Position numbers and translations under genes: made by a program. The notes beneath the pieces are model-generated. The model was not told where the DNA came from. It searched no databases and saw nothing but the letters and a program-made list of their open reading frames with translations. 64,000 nucleotides of DNA from Eledone cirrhosa (Eukaryota), in the NCBI GenBank assembly GCA_964016885.1, contig OZ024742.1, positions 181,474,001 through 181,538,000 on the forward strand, given 5' to 3'. Shown piece by piece: positions 7,927 to 63,368 of this stretch; the first letter of the stretch is position 1; each line of letters starts with the position of its first letter.

Positions 7927-10176
7927 CTATCGGCAAGATCTCATATAGCTGTTTACAGAAACCATTAACGGCACACAAGAACTGCCCAGATGGTTATCAA
8001 CTGCCACTACTCTCCTCATTCCCCAAAATAGCCAAACCACCCTTGCTAAAAATTACCGCCCAATAGCCTGCCAAAACATCATGTATGAATTATATACTGG
8101 GTGCCTTAACCTGTTCTTACAGGATCACTGTGCTACCAACAACATCATAACACCTAAGCAAGCTGGTGGAAAGAGGGAGGTGTGGTGTTGCATAGATCAC
8201 ATAGTAACAAATAAAATGATTCAGGAAAAAGCAACAAAGAATCGCAGAAACATGACTGTGGTGTGGCTGGACTATCAAAAAGCATTTGATAGTGTATCTC
8301 ATGGGTGGATTATTAAGGCTTTACAGTTAGCCAAAGTCCCACAACCATTCTTAGCAGCTGTTGAACACCTGACCAAGAACTTGTACACCAATTTGATCCT
8401 TAGAGGTGAGAAGGAGCAAGTTAAGACTGATAATATACATTACCAGAAGGGCATCTTTCAGGGTGATAGCTTGTCAGTGTTACTCTTTGTTCTCTCACTA
8501 AATCCACTATCTTACCTACTCAGGAAACAAGGTGGACAAAGAAGTGGGTCCAGAAGTATCTCCCATCTTTTCTTTGTTGATGACTCGAAGTTGTATGGCC
8601 CAAATATCAATGACATCAAGAAACAATTGGACCTCATTACACAATTTTCAACAGACATCAAAAGGAAATTTGGTGAGTCCAAGTGTGCATATTTGGCAGT
8701 AAAACGTGGAAGAGCTGTGCCCTCCTCTAGAAATCTAGAGATGAACGGCCTGACAATACAACCTCTACAGTCAGGTGACAACTACAGTTATCTTGGACAG
8801 GATGAGAATGTCAGATATGATGGACCCATAAATAAGGAGAGAACCAGAACTGAATACCTCAGAAGAGTAAAGAAAATATGGTCATCAGAACTGTAAGCGT
8901 ACAACAAATACATTGCCCACAATACTTATGCTGTGCCAATTCTAACGCCAACATTTGGCCTGCTGAACTGGTCATTGCAAGAACTAAGTGAGATGGATGT
9001 TAGAACTCGCAAACTTCTCAGTGTTTCTGGGAACTTTAACATCAATGGTGATGTGGATAGGCTATACTTCTTACGCAAGAAAGGTGGCCGGGCTCTAAAA
9101 TCCATATTAACAACATATGAGACGCGGATAGTAATACTGAAGCAACACCTTCAACAGAGGAAAAAGGTTGGCAACCATCTTGCCCAGGTTTATGAGCATG
9201 AAAAAAAAAATGATTAGAATAGCGACTGATCTGGAGGAGAGATATGGAATAAAGGCTGATATAAATCTCTCACCCAGAGAAATCGGAAGATCCTATTCAA
9301 TGTTCAAACAACATAAAGAAATTGACCAATTTACAGAAAAAATTGTGTATCGATACTTGAGACGTAAAACACAGACCATAGAGGGGATAAACCACTCAAA
9401 AAGCCTGGCATGGAGTTCCGACAAGTTTATGACATCACACCTTGAGGGATATCTCTATGCAATACAGGAACAAGAAATCCCTACCAAATATCTGCTGCAC
9501 AAAAGGGGAGGGCCATCAGCTGAAAATAAATGTAGGCTATGTAAAACACAGATCAAAGATGTAAACCACATTGTTGCCAGCTGCGAAAGAATGTCATCTC
9601 GCTACTACCTCCCCATGAGACACGATGGGATAGCTAGAACCATCTGGAACGCACTTCGGAAAACAAAATTAACAACAAACGAGGAAGAATATATTGAGAC
9701 AGATGGCACTAAGGAATACTGGTGGAACCTGAAAATAAAAATTGCCACCAAATTAAAGCACAACCGGCCTGATATTGTTGTGTGGGGCCACACATTGAAA
9801 ACGTGTTCTGTTGTGGAGATCAGCGGCCCAATTGTGGTAAACGTTGTCAGAAAAATACAGGAGAAGGAGGATATCTACGGACCATTGATGAGGAGTTTAC
9901 AAATCCAGTATCCAAGATACACCTTTAGCTTCATACCCATGATTATTGGAGCTACGGGTTATATACCAACCCGCTTGGACCAAAGTATAACTGAACTTGG
10001 ATTTGCGGACAAAAAGCGCGGCTCCCTAATTCACAGTCTACAAATGACTGCGATAGCTGGCACCTTCAAAATTTGCAAAACATTCTTGCGATTCAAGGGA
10101 TGACAATTTCTTTCTTTTACAACCTTGCCAGCAGGAAGGTGGCCGGTCAAAAAATATACTCGAAATTAAGAGAAAG
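7927..10176 (+). mobile_element. R4/Dong-like non-LTR retrotransposon (RT + CCHC + restriction-like endonuclease), 5'-truncated, disabled
   Basis: NYRPIAC, WLDYQKAFDSVSH, GIFQGDSLS, HLFFVDD, CRLC..HIVASC, RHD, NRPDIVVW..VVEIS; in-frame stop at 8894-8896; frameshift at the poly-A near 9201-9210. Confidence 0.88.
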
Positions 10177-24518: not shown

Positions 24519-27319
24519 CTAAAGGAATAAGGGTGGGGAGTTCAGGCCGGGAGGAGTGTGGGTCTGTAAGATGAAGATAGTACGTTGTTCGACCGTAAGG
24601 CGATGGGCGGGTGTTCCATGGCACTGGAGTAGGCCACAGACTGTGAGATGGCGTGCGGAATGTCCAGGGCTACCAAAGCGTCGGGCGATGGGGGAACTGC
24701 CCCCGAGACGAATGTCCCGGAGGTGCTCCGTGACTCGGTCCGCCAGGCGGCGTCCCGTCTGTCCGACATAAGTCGCGCTGCACCTCGTGCAACGAAGTCC
24801 GTAGACTAGGTTGGAGGAGGTGCAGCGGAAGGCATGCCGGACCGAGAGAGGGTGGCCGTTGGGACCCTGGAAGGTGGTGGTGTTGGTGATGTGGGGACAG
24901 GTGTTGCAGCGGGGCCTAGAACAGGGGAAGGAACCGGGGGGGAAACGGAGCGTGGGTTGGGGGGGTAGGGAGCTGTGGACGAGGAGGGTGCGGAGATTGC
25001 GTGCGCGTTTGAAGGAGGGGAGTGGTGGGGTTGGGAAGATGTGGGAGGTGGAGGGGTCGGACTGGAGGTGTCGGAAGAGGCGGCGGATGGTGCGGTGGAG
25101 GGGTAAGGTGGAGGGGTGGTAGGTGATGGGGAAGGGGAGACGGTGGGTGGGTGTGCGGTGGCGTGGGGTGAGGGTGGTGTAGCGGGGGATAGCACGGGCG
25201 CGGGTGAGAGCGGTGTGGACGAGAGAGGGGGGGTAACCTCTGCGGATGAAATGGCTGACTAGGGAAAGGGCCTGGGACTCGAAGTCAGCATCTCGGCTAC
25301 AGAGGCGGCGGATCCTGAGAAGTTGGGAGTAGGGAATGGAGAGTTTAGTGTGGGTGGGGTGGGAAGAGGTGAAGACGAGGTAAGAGTGGGAGTCGGTGGG
25401 TTTGAAGAAGGCAGAGGTGATGAGGGAGTGGTGGGAGGGGTCGAAGGCGACGGAGATGTCCAAGAAGTGGACGTGGGTGGTGGAGATAGAGGTGGTGAAG
25501 TGGAGGGAGGGGTGGAAGGAGCAGAAGAAGGAGAGAAAGGAGTCGAGCTGTACTCGGGTGAGGGTCGTGGCTCCGATACAGTCGTCAATGTAACGACCGT
25601 ACAGTTCGGGCGTGGGGCCGGTGTACTGGGCAAAGATTTGGGCCTCAACATGGCCAACAAAAAGGTTGGCATAGTTCGGGCCCATTCTTGTGCCCATGGC
25701 TACCCCCGTGACCTGTTGGTAAAACTCACCCGAGAAGGAGAAACAATTTAGGGTGAGGACCAGCTCGGCGAGGCGAAGGAGGGTGGGGGTGGAGGGAATG
25801 GGGGAGGGGCGAAGGTCGAGGTAGTGTTTGAGGGCGCGAAGGCCGTCAGCGTGGGGGATGACGGTATAGAGGGACTTGATGTCTAGGGTGAAGAGGAATG
25901 GCTGAGGGCCGGGTAGGTAGGTGAAGGAGTCGAAAAGGCGCAGGGCGTGGTTGGTGTCAGAGATGTGGGAGGGGAGGGTGGTGACAAGGGGGGCGAGGAG
26001 GGAGTCGAGAAAGGCGGAGATGAGTTCGGTGGGGCAGTTGCAAGCGGAGACGATGGGGCGGCCGGGGTTGTCGGGTTTGTGGAGTTTGGGGAGGAAGTAG
26101 ATGGTGGGGGTGCGGGGGGTGCGGACGATGAGGTGGGAAGCGGTGGGGGGGAGGAGGGAGGAGGCGATAAGGTATTTGATGGTGGAGGAGACTTGTTGTT
26201 GGTAGAGGGGGGTGGGATCGGAGGGTAGAGGGCGGTAAAAGAGGGGGTTACAGAGCTGCCTGAGGGCTTCGGCCGTGTAGAGGTCCGCGCGCCATACCAC
26301 CACGGCGCCTCCCTTGTCCGCCGGTTTGATGACGATGTCATCTCGGCTACGGAGGGAGCGGAGAGCGAGGAGTTCGCCCCGTGAGATGTTGTGCCGTTTG
26401 GAACGGTGGCGGAAGTCGAAACGATTTACTGCGCTACGGCTGGCATCGACGAAGGCGTCCAGGGTGCTAAATTGCCCTGGGGCCGGCGTCCAAGAAGATG
26501 GTCGTCGGCCCAGGGCGAGAAACGGGTCTGGGGCGTCCGGAGCCGGTGGCGTTCGGCTGAAATGTGCCTGTAGCTTAGTGCGTCGCACGAATCGCTCGAC
26601 TTCCGTTCGGGTGCGGAAATCGTCGCTGAGCGGAGTGTGGGGTATGAAGCGAAGGCCTCTACTAAGGAGTGAGCGCTCAGGTGCGGAGAGGGGGAGGTCA
26701 GGGGTTATGGTGACAACAAGGGGTGGGGTTTGGGTGTTTGGGGAGGGAAGGGAGGGTGTGGTGAGGGGTGGAGATTGGGTTGGGTGGGGGTCGGGGGAGA
26801 GGTGGGGAGTGGTGGGCGTATGGGGATGGGCGGGTGGTGGTGGATGGAGGGGGTTGGGAGGAGTGAGTGTAGCTTGCGGGCTTTGGTGGAGCTGAGGAAC
26901 GAGAAGAGGTGGTGGTTGAGGTTGTGGATGAAGGAGAGGATGGCTTGGGCGAGGAGGGGGTGGCAGGTGGAGTAAAGGCGGAGGAGGGTGGGGGTCAGTT
27001 GGTGGTCAAGTAGGCGGAGGGTGGAACGGGAGGCGCGGATGGAGTTGCGCATCAGAAGGCGTGAGGATCGGGTTAGGATACGTTGCGCGGAGGGGGAAGC
27101 AGCGGGGGAGGGGTGGAAGTGTAGCCGGAAGCCAAGGGGGATAAGGTGGAGGCGGAGGCAGTGGCTGAGGAAATGGATGTGGCTGGAGTGCCGGGTTTTG
27201 GCGAAGAGAAGGTAGGAGAGATGAAGGGCGGAGGGGAGATAGCAGGGTGGAAGGAGGGGGGTGAGGAAAAGTTTGAAGCGATTGTGGAGTTGGTGGAGAA
27301 AGGATCTCAGGCTGGCCAT
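24519..27319 (-). CDS. PLE reverse transcriptase + Zn linker + GIY-YIG endonuclease (one frameshift in the Pro-rich linker ~26720-26850)
   Basis: LSAPERSLLSRGLRFIP, IKPADKGG, YFLPKLHK, LDIKSLYT, GVAMGT, YGRYIDD, FKPTDSH, CSRPRCNTC, NLVYGLRCTRC..YVGQTGR; N-terminal part in ORF 26705-27466 from MASLRS. Confidence 0.92.
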
Positions 27320-29529: not shown

Positions 29530-32480
29530 CACATATATATATATATACACACACACACCCACACATACATACACACACACACATATATATACATTCACAC
29601 ATACAAACATACACACACACACACATATATATACACATACACACACATATATATACACACACATATATATATATATATACACATACGCATACATCCAGAT
29701 ACACACATACATACACACACACACACACGCACGCACACACAATACATACATCCACATGCACACACATACACACACACACACACATACACATACATACACC
29801 CACACACAGAGAAATGGCCTCCAAATATATATATATATACATACATACACATATTTTTTCCATAATATAAGAAGTTGGGACAGTGAAATTAAAATACAAC
29901 TCATTCTGATCACATTGAGTTCTTCATGTAGATTGGGCCCCGCAACCGACAGTGGTGAATTCTGTGTGCGAGATTGGGCCCCGCAACCGACAGTGGTGAA
30001 TTCTGTGTGCGCATATATATATAGATATATGTGTGTGCACGTGCAGGGTTTAACATGGATGTGTTGGTCACACAAAGGCATGGTCTGTCAACGAATAAAC
30101 CTGATTCTACAGAATTGGTCTCTGGTCTTTAATAGTAGTGATTCCGTGCGTATGTGTGTTTATATTTTATGACAATTCTATTGGGGTGATAACCCGTTTA
30201 GTTTTAGTTTAAATTTGTTAAGGAATAGATTTTCTTTGTTTATTCTTTGTTGCTGTGTGAACGAATCTGAGCACTTGTAGAAGGGGAAGATTTTAAAGTT
30301 GGGTAGTGTCATTCCTGCGCAGTTCGCAATATGGCTGCTCAAGGGGATTTTTCTTGTGTTAGCGTCCCGGATTTGTTGGCGGTGGATGGTCATTCTTTTG
30401 CGTAATGAGGTGCCCGTCTGTCCTATGTAGTTGTGTTTGCACCCACCGCAAGTTATTGCGTAAATCAAGTTCTCCGAGTTGCAGGTGAAATTGTTTTTTA
30501 CTGTAAATGTTTGGCCATCTTTGAATGGAAATGTTTGTCCTTCAGTGAGGCAGAGGCACGTTCCACAGTTTGTTCTACCACATTTGGTAACTGTAGGGTT
30601 GAGGATTGGTTTGGGTATATTTGGTCCAGTGAGAATGCGTTTAAGTGATTTGGGTTGTCTTTTACTTTTAAGGATCTTGTGTGTTTCAAGAATAGACTTC
30701 ATTTTTACATCTTTAAGTAGGATGGGGAGGTTTTTGTGTAGGTGATCAAACATTTCGGTATTTCTGGGGTTGAAAGTGGATACATATGGCAGGGTGTTGA
30801 GTGTGGTTTTCTATTTTGGATTGTTAAGTTGATGGGGATTTAGGTGTTTTGCCCTGTCTATTCCATTGTTGATTATTTCAAGTGGAAAGGCTCTTAAGAT
30901 AAGGGTGTCTTTTAGTTCCTTTAGTCTTTGCTCCCGTTTAGGTGGATCTGATACTATGGTACATATACGTTTGGCCAAATTGTAAGGAATGTTAAGTTTT
31001 GTATGTTTTGGGTGACTTGATGTGAAAAAGAGGTATTGCTTGGAATCTGTGGGTTTATAGAATATATCTGTATCTAATTTCCCGTCTATTACAGAGATGA
31101 GAATATCCAAGAAGGCTAATTCCTTGGGATTGGATTCCATTGTGAATTGTATGTTATTATCTATGTTGTTTATCATGTTTTTAAACGTAGTAAGTGAGTT
31201 CATGTCTTCTTGCCATAGGATAAAGCAGTCGTCTAGATATCTTTTCCAATTGGCTTTAAGGTGTGTGTGGAAAGAGTCTCCAAATAATAGAAGGGACTGA
31301 CTGTATATTTGTTGTTCATGGAATCCCATGACTAGGTTGGCATATGTGGGTGCTACTTTCGTGCCCATTTCCGTACCTGATACTTGTCTGTATGTTGAAC
31401 CATTGAATGTGAAGTAGTTATTTTGTAGGATAAAGCGGAGTCCGTCAGTGATAAAATCTGTGTTGATGCGTGTCGGTATTTCTGATGGGTGTGTGTTAAG
31501 CCAGTATTGGACTGCTGTTATTCCATAGTTGTGGGGTATGTTTGTGTAGAGGTTTATTACGTCAAAGGAGACAAGAATTGTATTTGCACTTACTGTTTTA
31601 GGGAGGTGTTTCAGCATGTTAAGGTCATCTCGTATGTAGCTCTGTATATGTTGTAGAAAGGGTTTCAGTAGGATGTCCAGAAAGTTGCTAAGTCTGTGGG
31701 TTTCACATGTAGGGCCTGCTATAATTGGCCTGAGTTTTAGGTCTTCTGGTGGTGTTAGTTCAATGTAATTGTTGGTTGAGGTGTCACATGCATCGTTTAT
31801 GGGTTTACATTTGTGGAGTTTCGGTAAGCCGTAAAAGGAGCTTGTATTTCATTTGAAGTGGCTTATATAGTTAAACTCTTTTGTGGTTAAGCTGTTGCGG
31901 TATTTATTCAGTAAGGTCAAAAGGTTCCCCATTGTTTTGGTGTGTTTGTAGTTTTCTGTTTTTTCATAGTATGTGTTGTTTTCTAAAATGTTAAGTGCGA
32001 GGGTCCTATAGTAGTCCGTATTCATAATGACAACAGTACTGCCTTTATCGGCTTCTTTGATAGTTATCTCAGGGTTGTTTCTAAGTGTGAATAATTCTTC
32101 CCATTCGTGTGTAGATAGGTTTGATTTCGTGTGTTTATTTGTAATTTTTTCATAGGGAAAGTTGGTGATGTGTTCGCAGTACGTGTCCAGTGCTTTATTT
32201 CTTCCCTTTTGTGGGCAGAAATTGCTTTTATTTCTAACCAGTGATTCGTCTTCAGTGTTGGTGTCGTTGTGGAAGAATTCCGTTAGTCGCAGCTTTCGGC
32301 AGTATTCCATGATGTCATCTTTCATTTCGGGGAAGTTTGGTTTACGTGGTGTAGGTGTAAATTTCAGGCCCTTACTTAAAATGTTGATTTGTGTGTTGGT
32401 TAGAGGTGTCTTTGAGAGGTTGATTATTTTTGGTTTCTCCTGAGGGGGCCCATCGAGTATCCTGGTATTTCAGGCTTTTC
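28757..32480 (-). mobile_element. Second Neptune-type PLE, AT-rich, with 3' UTR/pLTR and a decayed hammerhead (28901-28948)
   Basis: ORF pieces listed separately; ttgaaaa gatgg..ccatc GAAA ccgg TC on minus; 41-bp tandem duplication at 29930-30011. Confidence 0.85.
30178..32430 (-). pseudogene. PLE RT + GIY-YIG ORF with two in-frame stops (31849-31851 TGA, 30811-30813 TAG)
   Basis: INILSKGLKFTP, IKEADKGS, FYGLPKLHK, SFDVINLYT, WKRYLDD, YKPTDS, CGRTNCGTC, NLIYAITCGGC..YIGQTG; the three track ORFs share one frame. Confidence 0.92.
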
Positions 32481-35729: not shown

Positions 35730-37315
35730 TATACCTATACACACACATATATACATATACATATATATGTATATATATATACATATATATATACATATAC
35801 ATATATATGTATATATATATACATATATATACCTATACATATATACCTATATATATATATTTCGTTTCTGAATTTGTTTAGCAAGATTCTTTATCTGAAA
35901 TCGTGTGTTGAAACCGATATTGTTATACTTTGGGAGGGTCATGTTGCCAATATATAACAATATATATATATACCTATACATATATATACCTATACCTATA
36001 TACATATATATATACCTATACATATATATATATATACATATATATATACCTATACATATATACACCAGATAGAAAAATGCGTACAGCAAAAAAAAGTAAT
36101 ATTGTTGGAATATAAACCTTTTAAAATACAGCACAAGAAACTAAAATAAAACTTTAAAAGAATATGACAAGAAACTAAGATAAAACTTTAAAAGAATAGG
36201 ATAAGAAACTAAGATAAAACTTTAAAGAATTGGACAAGAAATAAAAAATTTTACAATAATATTAGTGGCAAAATTTTTATTGGTAAAAAATCGAGTTCCA
36301 CATTAATAGGCTCTGGGTTCCACATTCAGAGGTCGTCGTCAGACCGGGGGATCATTTGATCCTGGTTTGAACACCAATTGGGCCATAACCATACCCCTAT
36401 TTCATCATTCGGCGACACGCCTCATGTGTCATGCATAATGTGAATGGACCCATGGGCCCATGAGCACAGATCTTGAGCAGCAGCGGACGGTCTTGTCGTC
36501 CCGCTCATCCTTGATCTTGACCAACCCGTCCATCTTCTCCTTGCATCTTGTCCTTGAGTTCAAGTCCGACAGTCCAGATGAATGCGTGCCACAGCTTTCT
36601 GGTACAGGAAGGGGGAGCAGGAGGACTGGAGGGATGACGTGACAGAGGGAGGGAGGACCGGTGGTTGAGGGAGGTGCCGTAGTCGGTGGTCAGAGTCGAC
36701 ATCTTGTCCCGGTCGTCTTCTCCATCTTCGTCTGGTGTTGCGGGACCAGAAGTGCATTCTTGGAGAGACCTGCAGCTGCATTGGCCAATTCTTCTTGCAA
36801 TGGTCATTCTGACGGAGCAGAACTGCTCAGCCAACCAACCCCAACCAGAACCAACCGCTCAGGGGCAACGCACAATGAGAGCAGGACAATTATTATGCAC
36901 TAATCAAGAAGATACAGGAAACGAATAACAAAATTTTGCCACTAATATTATTGTAAATTTTTTTATATCTTGTCCAATTCTTTAAAGTTTTATCTTAGTT
37001 TCTTGTCCTATTCTTTTAAAGTTTTAACTTAGTTTCTTGTCCTATTCTTTTAAAGTTTTATTTTAGTTTCTTGTCCTGTATTTTTAAAGGTTTATATTCC
37101 AACAATATTACTTTTTTTTGCTGTACGCATTTTTCTATCTGGTCTACTATTTTTTAAGGCAATGCAAGCAACAACTATCTAATAATTAAATGATCATAGT
37201 GAATTACTGACAAGTGATTGACATTTTAAAGTTCTTTTGAGTATAATTGCAATCTAGTTGAGGCAACTGGCTTAATGACAAAGCTAGTAAATCATGAATG
37301 CATTTGAGATGATTA

Positions 37316-37772
37316 GTGCATAATAGTGAATTGGTGAAACTTGTGCATTTCAATGGTGTTACAACAATAGATGTAAGTTATATAGTAGTAATACTTTATC
37401 ATTTTAACTTTTTAGAATGGACAAAAATCCATGCAAAGAAATGACTTTGACTGCAGTGATTCTCTCCAATTTACTTACAAAGCAAAACGTGGTCAAATAC
37501 CTTATCATCTCTGATAAAATGCCCAATCACTGAAAATCGGATGCATGGAATTCCTCATAAAATGCACCTATGAATCGGAAGCCATCACATATATCAATGG
37601 ATATAGGGAGTTGTTCACACTGGAAGACCATCACTTCATTTGTGACTTCATCAGTTATCTCCACGATTATCTCAGACACCCAATGCCATTGATGAGAGGT
37701 GATCCAATGTGTGAGCATGTAACTAATCTTAGAGAAGTTGTTATCGACCACCTGGCTTTTAGTGACATTTGA
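37316..37772 (+). pseudogene. Decayed spliced gene of unknown product
   Basis: GTAAGT..TTTTAG 43-nt intron at 37373-37415; downstream exon is in frame with ORF 37545-37772 but has TGA TAA near 37512. Confidence 0.4.
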
Positions 37773-37952
37773 CTGATTTGACTGATAATGATGTATTTTT
37801 AAAAAGTATGTGTACATTCTTGTTACTATTTTAAGGCAATGCAATCAACAACTATTTAATAAAATTTAAATTTAAAAATGACCATTGTGCATTACTAGTA
37901 TGATGACATTTTATTAAGTCACAAAATTAGTCAGTCAGCCATAAAACAAGGA

Positions 37953-38748
37953 TCAGGTGGCAAAAACATTGGCAAAAATTTGTGTCAATTTAAGATTTCC
38001 AACATTGTTCAAATGAATCATATCTGGTTTGAAGTCAGATTTGTCAAATTTTGACCAATTTTCAATGTTGTGAAGATTGGGCAAGTTCAATTTTTGAATC
38101 ATTTCTTTCATGCAGTAATTAAACTTTTCCAAACGAGAATTTCTCTTGGCCAAGTCATTTTTATTTTCAATTACACTTTGTGGACGTGGAATGACACCAC
38201 TGTAGAAAATGGGTGTACAGTGGTGCTTTTCCGCTATTTTCTGTAGCCTTGCAAAGAGACTCTTCCCCTGTTTTTCCGATTTTGGGCCTCGAATGGGCAC
38301 TTTGTCCTTAATTTACAAATAAATGATTAATAAAAAATACTTGGGCAAAAATTATTGTATTACTTTGCACAGCTTTGTAGTGCCAACGGTGCGACGAGGA
38401 TTCATATCATTAGAGCCGACATGAACCACCAATACTTTCACAAAAGGACAACAGATAACAATGTTGGCGATTAACATTACCTGGCCCTGACGGGCCCCAG
38501 GTATACAACATATCTAAGTATTTTTGTTGGTATGATAAGTAAATACATTTGAATTAATATTTTTATACCTTCTGGTCATTCGATTTCGCCACATTTCTAA
38601 TTATGGATTTGTAAAAACTGGCATGAATGTGAATTTGATCAGTCCAATTGCCCGATTTTAGTGAAAAGTTTTGATTCAAAATGGAAATACTCCATTTCCG
38701 TGCCATCGAAAAAATGAATAAGCCGATCAAAAAGCCGCGAAACATCAT
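37953..38748 (-). CDS. Spliced SGNH/GDSL hydrolase (esterase/lipase), 3 exons: 38748-38569, 38513-38364, 38306-37953 (~227 aa)
   Basis: GT-AG phase-0 introns of 55 and 57 nt join YKSIIRNV (block I Ser), CIPGA (block II), VVHVGSND (block III), YSGVIPR and DMIHLNNVG (block V) without stops; start codon uncertain. Confidence 0.85.
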
Positions 38749-38881: not shown

Positions 38882-39724
38882 GACTGTTAATAATACTAGA
38901 AGTGCAAACTATCTGTTGAATACCTGGTATATGAAGAGCAACCAATACGATCGGTCGGCGATCGGTCTTGAAGAAGAATGAAGAATGAAGTGAAATTTTG
39001 GTCTGGTTGTTGTCATCGGTGTTTCGCAGAGATGCCGGCACGAACAAAGGTGTCAGTGACACAAAGTTGTCCGCTTGAACAAAGGTGTCGGTCCGACAAA
39101 GGTGCAGTCAGACAGACAGTCAGACAGTGTCACAGTCGGTGCGACAAAGCGATCGATGCGATTTAAAAAAATTTAACTCACATGTTTACCTATATTGTCG
39201 CAAACTATTGATAGATTGGTACAAAAAATAGCTTTGATAATAAACATAAATTTTTAATGAAGTATTTAAAAAGCATTTTAGCAGTGAAAATTGAAGTAAT
39301 GTTTCACACTGACGGAAGTAGGGCCGTTCAGAAATGACGTAGTCAATTAATAGGAGGGGATTCGGCGATTTGACTACATTTGACTAACGTAATCACAATC
39401 ACAAGAGTTCCGCCGAAAAAATTCGTCGTTTCTGGATTACCTCCCCTAGCGTCACGCTTACTACTCACTCACTTGAACACAAGATTTATTAGCAAACTTT
39501 GATTATAAACTTTTTCCCGCTGGACCAAATTTCTAGATTTTTAAGCCAAAAGATGCGTAATGATGTATTGTTCATGCTCATATAAGTTTTATCTCAGTTA
39601 AATAAAGAAGAACCGCGCTGTACTGTCGTAAACAGACGATTGCCAACGAAAACACGATCACAACAATATTACTAAACGGACTACCGTCCGTTTAGGATAT
39701 ATACATACATATATATACCTATAC

Positions 39725-61624: not shown

Positions 61625-63090
61625 TCATCATCATCATCATCGTTTAACATCCCTGTTCCACGCTTGCATGGGTTTGGACGGGGGTTTTCCCACTTGAGGC
61701 AAGAGTGGTTGTCTTGCTCGCATAGGACTGTCTGGCGGGTTTTCTACAGCTGGATGCCCTTCCTCACACCAACCACATTTACAGTGTGGGGCTGGGAGGT
61801 TTTTACCGTGTTGCCTACACGGCCACATTACAGCGTGGACTGTGTGTTTTTTTGTCGTGACACCTACACGATCTCGTTTGTTTCGGCCTGGATGTTGTGG
61901 CACCAACATAACTTTGCATTGAAGAGGGCGGTGTGGATGGGGTGGGACGGGGGTGAATTTTGTTAGAGATGCCTACTGACTAGTAGGTTTTACTTTGTAT
62001 TTAGGTAAGGCGGGTCTTCTCTGTTACTGAGTACCGCCAAAGGTCTCGGTCCAGTGACATTGTCTTGGAGAGGTGTAAGTGTGTGAGGTCGGAATTTATC
62101 AGCTCGTCCCAGGTTTTCCTCGGTCTGCCTACTCCGTGGCTACCATCTATCTTTATTGCCCTGCACTTTGTTATACAGCTGTCGTCTTTCATGCCCATCA
62201 CGTGACCATACCAACGTAGTCTTCTCTCGAGTAAACAACATCTGATCCCTCTTATTTCTAATTTTTTCCTTTGTTCGTTTATGCTTTGCCGTTCACGTAT
62301 ATTACTATTACACATCCAGCGGAGCATGCAAGCTTTGTTCCTCTCTAATCTGCATATATCCTCTGCACACAATGCCCAGGTCTCACTGCCATGCAACATT
62401 GCTGTTCGTATGCAGGCATCAAACAACCTGCCTTTCATTTTTAGGGAGAACCCTTTTGCAGCTAATAGTGGTATAAGCTCTCTGAACTTTTTCCATCCAG
62501 TTCTGACTCTAGCTACTGTACTTTCAGAGCACCCTCCCCCACTGCTGATTTTGTCACCCAGGTAACGGAAGCTGTCCACTATTTCTATAGAGCCCTCTGT
62601 GCAGTTGAATGAGCTAGTATTTAGTGGGCACTTGCTGCTACTTATTGCACCAGAGCACCGGCCACATGTAAAATCTGTGTTCTTAGTTAGCTTACCTGTG
62701 ATCCCACTACATTTTTATGCACCCATACTTTGCATTTGGGACATAAAATGGAGTTTCTACCTACGCCTTTCCTACACACTGAGCATGGCCATTTCCCGGA
62801 GGGGACCGCCGCCTTATTTTCTTTCCTACGAACTAGAACTTTAGTCTTAGCCAGATTAATTTTAAGGCCTTTTGATTCTAGGCCGTGCTTCCATGTTTGG
62901 AATTTCTTCTCTAGCTCGGCCATTGATTCAGCTATGAGCGTTAGATCATCTGCGTATAGGAGTTCCCATGGGCAGCCGGTCTTGAACTCCTCTGTTATAG
63001 CCTGAAGGGCAATAATAAATAGTAGGGGGCTAAGAACAGAGCCCTGATGGACACCAACTTTTACGCTAAACTCTTCACTATATTCATTCA
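61625..63090 (-). mobile_element. RTE-clade LINE, 5'-truncated, PHD-like insert within the RT
   Basis: [51 protein letters not shown]; frameshift near 62712; (GAT)n tail. Confidence 0.92.
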
Positions 63091-63368
63091 CAGGTCACAT
63101 GTCTCAGATGAAGAATTAAAAGGAATCCCTCTTGAGACTATATTCCAAAACAACGTTATGTTTAAGTTGCCAGAGTAAGCCCGATAATGAAGTTGAAGAT
63201 TTTGGGATTCCTTTTAATTCTTCATCTGAGACATGTGACCTCTGCGTGGAGGAGATATTCTTTATATTAAAATCTAAAAATTCCCTTAATCTAAGGAGCA
63301 ATTTATTCAGTTGCTGCAGACATAGATTGAACTCAACGTTTAAATATAAATATAAATTTAAAATGTAG
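63087..63368 (+). mobile_element. Naiad-like PLE C-terminus with inverted upstream piece
   Basis: Plus: PFNSSSETCDLCVEEIFFIL..LNLRSNLFSCCRH; minus 63130-63200: STSLSGLLWQLK..YSLK; ~40 bp duplicated in inversion. Confidence 0.75.

Follow-up and report, generated by a model that had tools for sequence, protein, structure and literature searches.

The minus strand at positions 37953–38748 of the window (the whole stretch of DNA analysed, 64,000 nucleotides long) can be read as a small SGNH esterase gene split by two very short introns, and it raises the question of what this gene is and what kind of element carries it. The sequence-only reading had taken it for a three-exon, transposon-type esterase of about 227 amino acids, with an unusual catalytic block I (YKS) and on an unclassified mobile element. 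The predicted splice sites were borne out by the sequence. The introns of 55 nt (38568–38514) and 57 nt (38363–38307, with two in-frame stops inside) start with GT, end with AG and lie in phase 0, and their removal joins pieces of 60, 50 and 117 codons into a stop-free frame of 227 codons, in which S, G, N and DxxH occur in the right order. The GC content is 18% in the introns versus 36–45% in the exons. GT and AG were kept in 40–44 of 45 copies, but with a divergence of about 1% this conservation is no more than background. Contigs of four sequencing runs contained both introns unspliced and no joint at either; the kind of contig is unrecorded, and these contigs have no bearing on expression.

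The esterase exons belong to a young multi-copy repeat, as the search for further copies demonstrated. In the genome search exon 3 matched at all 150 scored of 296 candidates. For exon 2, where 150 of 156 candidates were scored, 136 places matched; almost all had at least 90% identity, and none was in an intronless frame. When a processed intronless copy was sought, no open frame exceeded 87 aa around exon 2 or 128 aa around exon 3 (150 scored candidates each). Comparison of the copies defined a common 3.6-kb unit, which in the window occupies 3,633 bp of the minus strand (39697–36065). The unit begins with 5′-TC and ends with CTGG-3′, and in the window it is inserted into a TA microsatellite, between A and T. 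The base before the 5′ end was A in 53 of the 55 5′ ends found. Among the elements with both ends (n = 41), A preceded the TC in 39 and T followed the 3′ end in all, and inspection of the flanks of these 41 copies by eye showed no constant target-site duplication. The 26-nt 5′ end of the element had 317 exact matches genome-wide (control, 0). At this end there is a hairpin with a 10-bp stem and a 4-nt loop (39672–39695, minus strand; −10.2 kcal/mol), which folds with equal energy in a sister family, where the stem carries a compensatory change of G-C to C-G. The 3′ end showed no strong hairpin (−3.7 kcal/mol over 60 nt).

The 3′ part of the unit contains a subterminal inverted repeat of about 217 bp. 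Its inner arm, with 34-bp tandem units, lies at 36930–37146 and its terminal arm, which reaches up to the 3′ CTGG, at 36065–36277. The GC-rich spacer of about 650 bp between these long repeats (window 36278–36929; L073, L120/L121, L122/L123) appears in inverted orientation in part of the copies and is missing from L039 and L042. Its content is unlike that of the spacer of the sister family. An antisense ORF of about 116 codons lies within the cargo segment on the plus strand (37417–37780, the end being approximate). It had no Pfam match and is located between direct repeats of 75% identity (37145–37228 and 37824–37913). In the window four nucleotides are missing near 37524, which shifts its frame, while the ORF is intact in L032:4320–4667. 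Unrelated retroelements were detected nearby, outside the element, at 7949–10103, 24519–27005, 30178–32469 and 62001–63094; they comprise one LINE-type RT with zf-RVT, two RT with GIY-YIG (Penelope-like) and one RT fragment.

The origin of the unit could be read from longer copies with the same ends. One 5′ end was found 10 kb from its esterase exons, in the long copy L082+L083. In this copy and in a complete copy of about 12.6 kb (L120+L121) the two arms of the window element, which are 94–96% identical to the full-length copy, surround a RepHel ORF. The RepHel of the long copies matched Helitron_like_N (E = 8e-24), DUF6570 (E = 2e-14), PIF1 and, at the C-terminus, UCH (E = 2e-4). According to the available text of the HELIANO study, DUF6570 marks the HLE2 clade and UCH is nearly confined to it (PMC11417382). 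By these two markers, which were also present in the RepHel of the sister families, the element is assigned to the Helitrons of the HLE2 clade. The view that the esterase is an intron-containing gene of transposon type on a mobile element thus stands, while the element itself need no longer be called unclassified. Its Rep is only about 30% identical to that of the other Helitron group of the genome, and its HUH motif is unlike that of L051/L052. The structure of the element is not that of a canonical HLE2 element or Helentron, since the target is A and T and no endonuclease domain was seen. The 5′ TC, the 3′ CTRR and the insertion between A and T are those of canonical HLE1, but the HLE1 hairpin 10–12 nt from the 3′ end and an HLE1-type RepHel were not found; the hairpin of this element sits at the opposite, 5′ end and the RepHel carries DUF6570. 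Readings of the repeat as a LINE, a DIRS/Ngaro element, a PLE or a MITE were rejected: the ORF lists and Pfam showed no RT-like ORF within the ends of the long copies, the RT ORFs of the window lie outside the element, no constant target-site duplication was seen, and a RepHel lies within the same ends.

Two families with related Rep proteins were compared. In the sister family (84% Rep identity) the layout is the same and the element ends in CTAG. CTAG also forms the end in a more distant family (54% identity), whose ORFs of 2,230 aa are intact and whose 5′ hairpin is longer. The esterase cassette is absent from both, and its exons had no match in eight 20-kb stretches around related RepHels. 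A related HLE2 family at G000:C5, C3, C1, C14 and other contigs (L126–L129) contains several intact RepHel–UCH ORFs of 2,230–2,245 codons, and judging from these ORFs it is possibly still active. At its start the RepHel ORF (L082:1307–1555; L112, L124, L160) encodes a hydrophobic leader. About 80 codons in, there is a motif that we take to be 2A-like, with Cys where Asp is usual and identical in the sister family. Both sister-family copies examined share an in-frame TAA within the helicase (L112:7562–7564, L160:7643–7645), followed by a run of A, which splits RepHel into 1,904 and 507 codons in L112 and may be either a lesion common to both or a site of recoding.

Alignment with the long copies showed how the window copy had lost its middle. 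Most of the former exon 1 (38605–38748, minus strand) consists of codons 1–48 of the RepHel ORF, the hydrophobic leader, which in L082 and L120/L121 runs on into the rest of that ORF. A deletion junction with an imperfect 4-nt microhomology follows at 38604–38607, where 8,985–9,094 bp of the parent are gone, and beyond it the minus strand continues with the last 12 codons of parental exon 3, which form the helix after the catalytic Ser (38569–38604). The predicted 55-nt intron (38514–38568) is parental intron 3, the 50-codon exon with SGNH blocks II (PG) and III (GSND) is parental exon 4 (38364–38513), the predicted 57-nt intron (38307–38363) is parental intron 4, and the 117-codon last exon with the DxxH of block V and the stop (37953–38306) is parental exon 5. 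Missing at the junction are the rest of RepHel–UCH, the exons of a NADAR domain, and strand β1 of the SGNH domain with its Gly-Asp. Because the deletion joined RepHel codons 1–48 to the esterase, block I reads YKS, and the Ser of this motif is RepHel codon 48, placed in frame at the site of the former catalytic Ser. In the parental copies block I reads IVGDSII, with GDS in 6/7 copies, and block III reads GSND in 7/7. What had been described as a variant block I is therefore an artefact of the junction, and an extra intron hidden before the Ser, which had been considered as a cause of YKS, was dropped once the parent was found.

The junction and the decay of the copies were surveyed at 45 loci on contig C1, taken from the list of exon-2 matches. 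The junction was present at 39 of these loci, only its esterase side at three, and the region was absent from three. Among the 39 junction-bearing copies the three-exon frame was kept in 20 and broken in 19. Relative to the commonest codon, the esterase exons of the deleted form showed 46 synonymous and 163 non-synonymous differences, 7 of the latter being stops, which gives a pN/pS of 0.92; the introns differed by 0.8%. The test of selection on the deleted form thus indicated neutral decay. Such decay is expected for inserted copies of any transposon gene and says nothing on selection on a master copy. Derivatives without most or all of the esterase were about equally deep in DNA contigs, with joints at ∼620–720 against a gene depth of ∼600–900. 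Given the neutral decay and the amplification of esterase-less derivatives to similar depth, the deleted form looks like a passenger.

These results bear directly on the reading of the locus as a native three-exon gene for a 227-aa esterase with a YKS block I on an unclassified element, a reading that is already contradicted and that we hold to be very improbable. It can draw on the frame that is open in 20/39 C1 copies, on the Ser at the catalytic position, and on the hydrophobic leader, which lies downstream of the main promoter region of the element. However, the first 48 codons are RepHel sequence, the parent has GDS, the decay is neutral, and exon 1 alone gave no signal when compared with an esterase (371/500 shuffles reached its score). 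The three pieces are thus not the native exons of the gene, which in its undeleted form has five, and the 227-aa protein is a chimera, the real cargo being a longer NADAR–SGNH fusion. An in-frame fusion, which has a one-in-three chance, may have made a useful chimera. On its sequence, the window esterase lacks the NADAR part of the gene and is probably no more than a dead passenger.

The assignment of the remaining exons to the SGNH hydrolases relied on several comparisons. The profile match on which the sequence-only reading had been staked was obtained but is weak: exon 3 matched Lipase_GDSL_3 with E = 0.002, below the curated cut-off, a read-through of exons 2–3 matched GDSL families with E = 0.005–0.03, and the Pfam pieces overall ranged from 0.002 to 0.04 and are weak by themselves. 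Atlas look-alikes of exon 3 included GDSL clusters (0.89–0.92). A comparison was also made with L081, the intronless LINE-type esterase of this genome. The spliced exons 2+3 scored 52, a value reached by 0/500 shuffles, and with intron 2 left in they scored 42 (9/500 shuffles). In the same test the spliced esterase part of the parent scored only 42 (19/500 shuffles), which counts against the SGNH reading. A single-sequence AlphaFold model had a pLDDT of 38. Searches for homologues returned only one PYRIN/FIIND protein, a chance match, and sequence searches of the PDB gave weak or chance matches. The direct match of the window esterase to the esterase of zebrafish LINE ORF1 (PDB 4c1b) was weak (E = 1.9); the motifs of blocks I–III and V and their spacing are similar in the cargo and in 4c1b, whereas the latter is intronless and lies in a retrotransposon and the former is spliced, by prediction, and lies in a Helitron. 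In the window form the position of the catalytic Ser is kept while Gly-Asp and strand β1 are replaced. The sole PF13472 match of the genome search was L081 itself (L081:1414–2814, minus strand, on G000:C18), an intronless frame of 466 codons. It encodes a coiled-coil-like stretch and an SGNH domain of LINE-ORF1 type, with GCS as block I, and is possibly a domesticated ORF1.

The undeleted region upstream of the esterase exons was found at seven places (8 matches, one copy being split in two), and a further search likewise gave 7 strong matches. In the copy on contig C2 (G000:C2, L102:1311–2701) a five-exon model gave a stop-free frame of 335 codons, interrupted by four GT-AG introns (55, 217, 54 and 57 nt). 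The gene lies downstream of RepHel and inside the element ends. Its N-terminal part matched NADAR (PF08719) with E = 9.3e-8 over about two thirds of the domain, the score of 32.9 bits falling just short of the curated 35.1, and a NADAR search of the genome gave matches only in two parental copies (2/4 candidates). The catalytic residues of a Phytophthora NADAR enzyme are given as E43, K50 and E125, and their equivalents here, by motif and spacing and not by structure, are E36, K43 and E112 (PMC11543638, as far as its available text goes). E36 and K43 were present in 5/5 copies that hold exon 1, and E112 in 5/7. The C2 copy has the single unbroken cargo frame and carries N for D in block V; none of the seven parental copies combines an unbroken frame with every motif. 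Two partly deleted copies of parental type were observed about 14 kb apart and in opposite orientation at G000:C1:18342000–18359000 (L104, L105).

We consider it very probable that an internal deletion in a 12.6-kb HLE2 Helitron gave rise to the 3.6-kb element of the window, which the RepHel of the long element likely copied in trans, and that the esterase exons here represent the 3′ half of a NADAR–SGNH cargo gene with predicted splicing, a gene likely non-functional in its truncated state. In the long element the cargo would be transcribed downstream of RepHel and spliced. Its 335-aa product would combine a NADAR domain, predicted to remove ADP-ribose from guanine or from another N-glycoside, with a LINE-ORF1-like SGNH domain, predicted to act as an esterase. 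A single deletion would have fused the RepHel leader, without a shift of frame, to the helix that follows block I of the esterase and, in the same event, removed strand β1 and Gly-Asp. The short form would then have been amplified as a passenger to over 100 copies. Its copying would proceed by the rolling-circle activity of RepHel, acting in trans on the short form, as suggested by what is established for Helitrons and by the ends that both forms have in common. Since no RepHel copy examined in the window family was intact (longest open frame, 1,174 aa), we infer the trans-acting source rather than observe it.

Parts of this arrangement have counterparts in known systems. The spliced transposon esterase had been offered as a novelty, and in this respect fish texim genes came before it: they are known from platyfish, medaka, pufferfish, sea bass and guppy (PMC4021074; PMC7643365), and like the gene described here texim is a multi-copy, intron-containing SGNH hydrolase gene, related to the CR1 ORF1 esterases and associated with Helitrons (PMC4021074). 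By description, texim has up to 15 exons, and the Helitron coding region lies 3′ of the gene or in its last intron, whereas the present cargo has five exons, lies downstream of RepHel inside defined ends and is fused to NADAR, a domain not mentioned in the available text of the two texim papers. YbiA-type NADAR domains occur as transposon cargo in an Ectocarpus Gypsy Pol and in oyster Tx1 ORF1 (PMC12477816); from what that source gives, they are there part of core ORFs of retrotransposons, in contrast to the separate spliced gene with SGNH in a DNA transposon found here. The RepHel with DUF6570 and UCH and the non-autonomous deletion derivatives are shared with the UCH-bearing HLE2 subgroups c/d, yet canonical HLE2 elements are described with insertion between T and T, terminal inverted repeats of 11–18 nt at both ends and a 3′ stem-loop (PMC11417382). 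The window family instead has an A and T target, TC and CTGG ends, a 5′ hairpin and the pair of ∼217-bp inverted repeats, both downstream of RepHel. As far as the sources describe them, its ends resemble more closely those of proto-Helentron from Phytophthora and of FoHeli3-5 / HLE2-reverse from Fusarium, which, as here, pair a protein of HLE2 type with a stem-loop at the 5′ end but have no hairpin at the 3′ end (PMC4067079, PMC11417382, PMC5148889). Proto-Helentron also shares the insertion between A and T, a CTAG end and the lack of a target-site duplication (PMC4067079). In those oomycete and fungal elements inverted repeats of 12–16 nt flank the ORF, whereas the window family has long repeats and comes from an animal-type genome. 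HELIANO reported no proto-Helentron-like element in 404 genomes, and its available text with one supplement contains no mention of NADAR, SGNH or GDSL (PMC11417382). In the literature searched, which left out most subscription journals, there was no NADAR in a Helitron and no NADAR–SGNH fusion, and the family may already be present in Repbase/Dfam. As far as these sources go, the parental NADAR–SGNH cargo and the unusual HLE2 ends make up a new variation on known elements, while intron-containing SGNH genes beside Helitrons were already known, and the window copy is an ordinary deletion derivative with a truncated passenger in a known transposon class.

The parental gene raises the further question of whether the cargo serves the Helitron, and both answers considered here are compatible with the deletion-derivative explanation. 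We give about an even chance to a passive cargo, that is a recently captured host gene or an intronised retrotransposon ORF1 that was never useful to the element. The cassette is a clean indel of about 2.2 kb relative to the sister family, starting ∼60 nt before the ATG. Its esterase motifs resemble those of 4c1b, the weakness of that match notwithstanding, and oyster Tx1 ORF1 proteins carry NADAR (PMC12477816, in the part available). What speaks against a passive cargo is that no donor emerged from the genome searches by family and exon by exon, which gave only element copies, the unrelated intronless esterase L081 and two chance hits, the latter being weak matches to the bridging exon; these searches scored few candidates, and a diverged host donor could be missed.

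Helitrons move via single-stranded DNA, and NADARs act on that class of substrate. A useful cargo, which we regard as possible but rather unlikely, would have its NADAR domain strip guanine-ADP-ribose from the single-stranded intermediate and so counter a host defence by DNA ADP-ribosylation, with the esterase aiding at membranes or lipids, as proposed for the LINE ORF1 esterases. A whole gene of 335 codons and four introns with its catalytic residues kept and no host source in the assembly is consistent with such a role, and whole-gene capture by Helitrons has been called exceptionally rare (PMC6431247); as the respective sources have it, NADAR has turned up repeatedly in retrotransposons of the Gypsy and Tx1 groups (PMC12477816), and so has SGNH next to Helitrons of fish (PMC4021074). 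On the other side, the cassette is absent from the 84% sister family as well as from the distant family with intact 2,230-aa ORFs, and the seven parental copies gave, on small counts, a pN/pS of 1.12 for NADAR (4 synonymous, 17 non-synonymous) and of 0.67 for SGNH (16 synonymous, 41 non-synonymous). Phage orphan NADARs are said to be antitoxins. The most specific proposal, which we put forward as a long shot, is that an animal Helitron lineage with proto-Helentron-like ends would carry its own spliced NADAR–SGNH enzyme for counter-defence, erasing guanine ADP-ribosylation from the rolling-circle intermediate, and that this enzyme would be the eukaryotic transposon counterpart, by analogy, of those phage proteins.

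The locus itself holds a caution, namely that an odd catalytic motif within a repeat can be an artefact of a junction. HLE2 proteins in elements that have HLE1-like ends and their hairpin at the 5′ side had so far been described in oomycetes and fungi, and the family adds an animal-type genome to these; annotation tools based on ends would miss such HLE2 elements there. NADAR has been reported in molluscs generally, and its role in animals is stated as unclear in the available text of PMC11125620. A concrete setting in which this role could be tested is offered by the present DNA transposon, which is young and carries a complete NADAR–SGNH gene, and if the counter-defence proposal were true, it would point to DNA ADP-ribosylation as a defence against transposons in animals.
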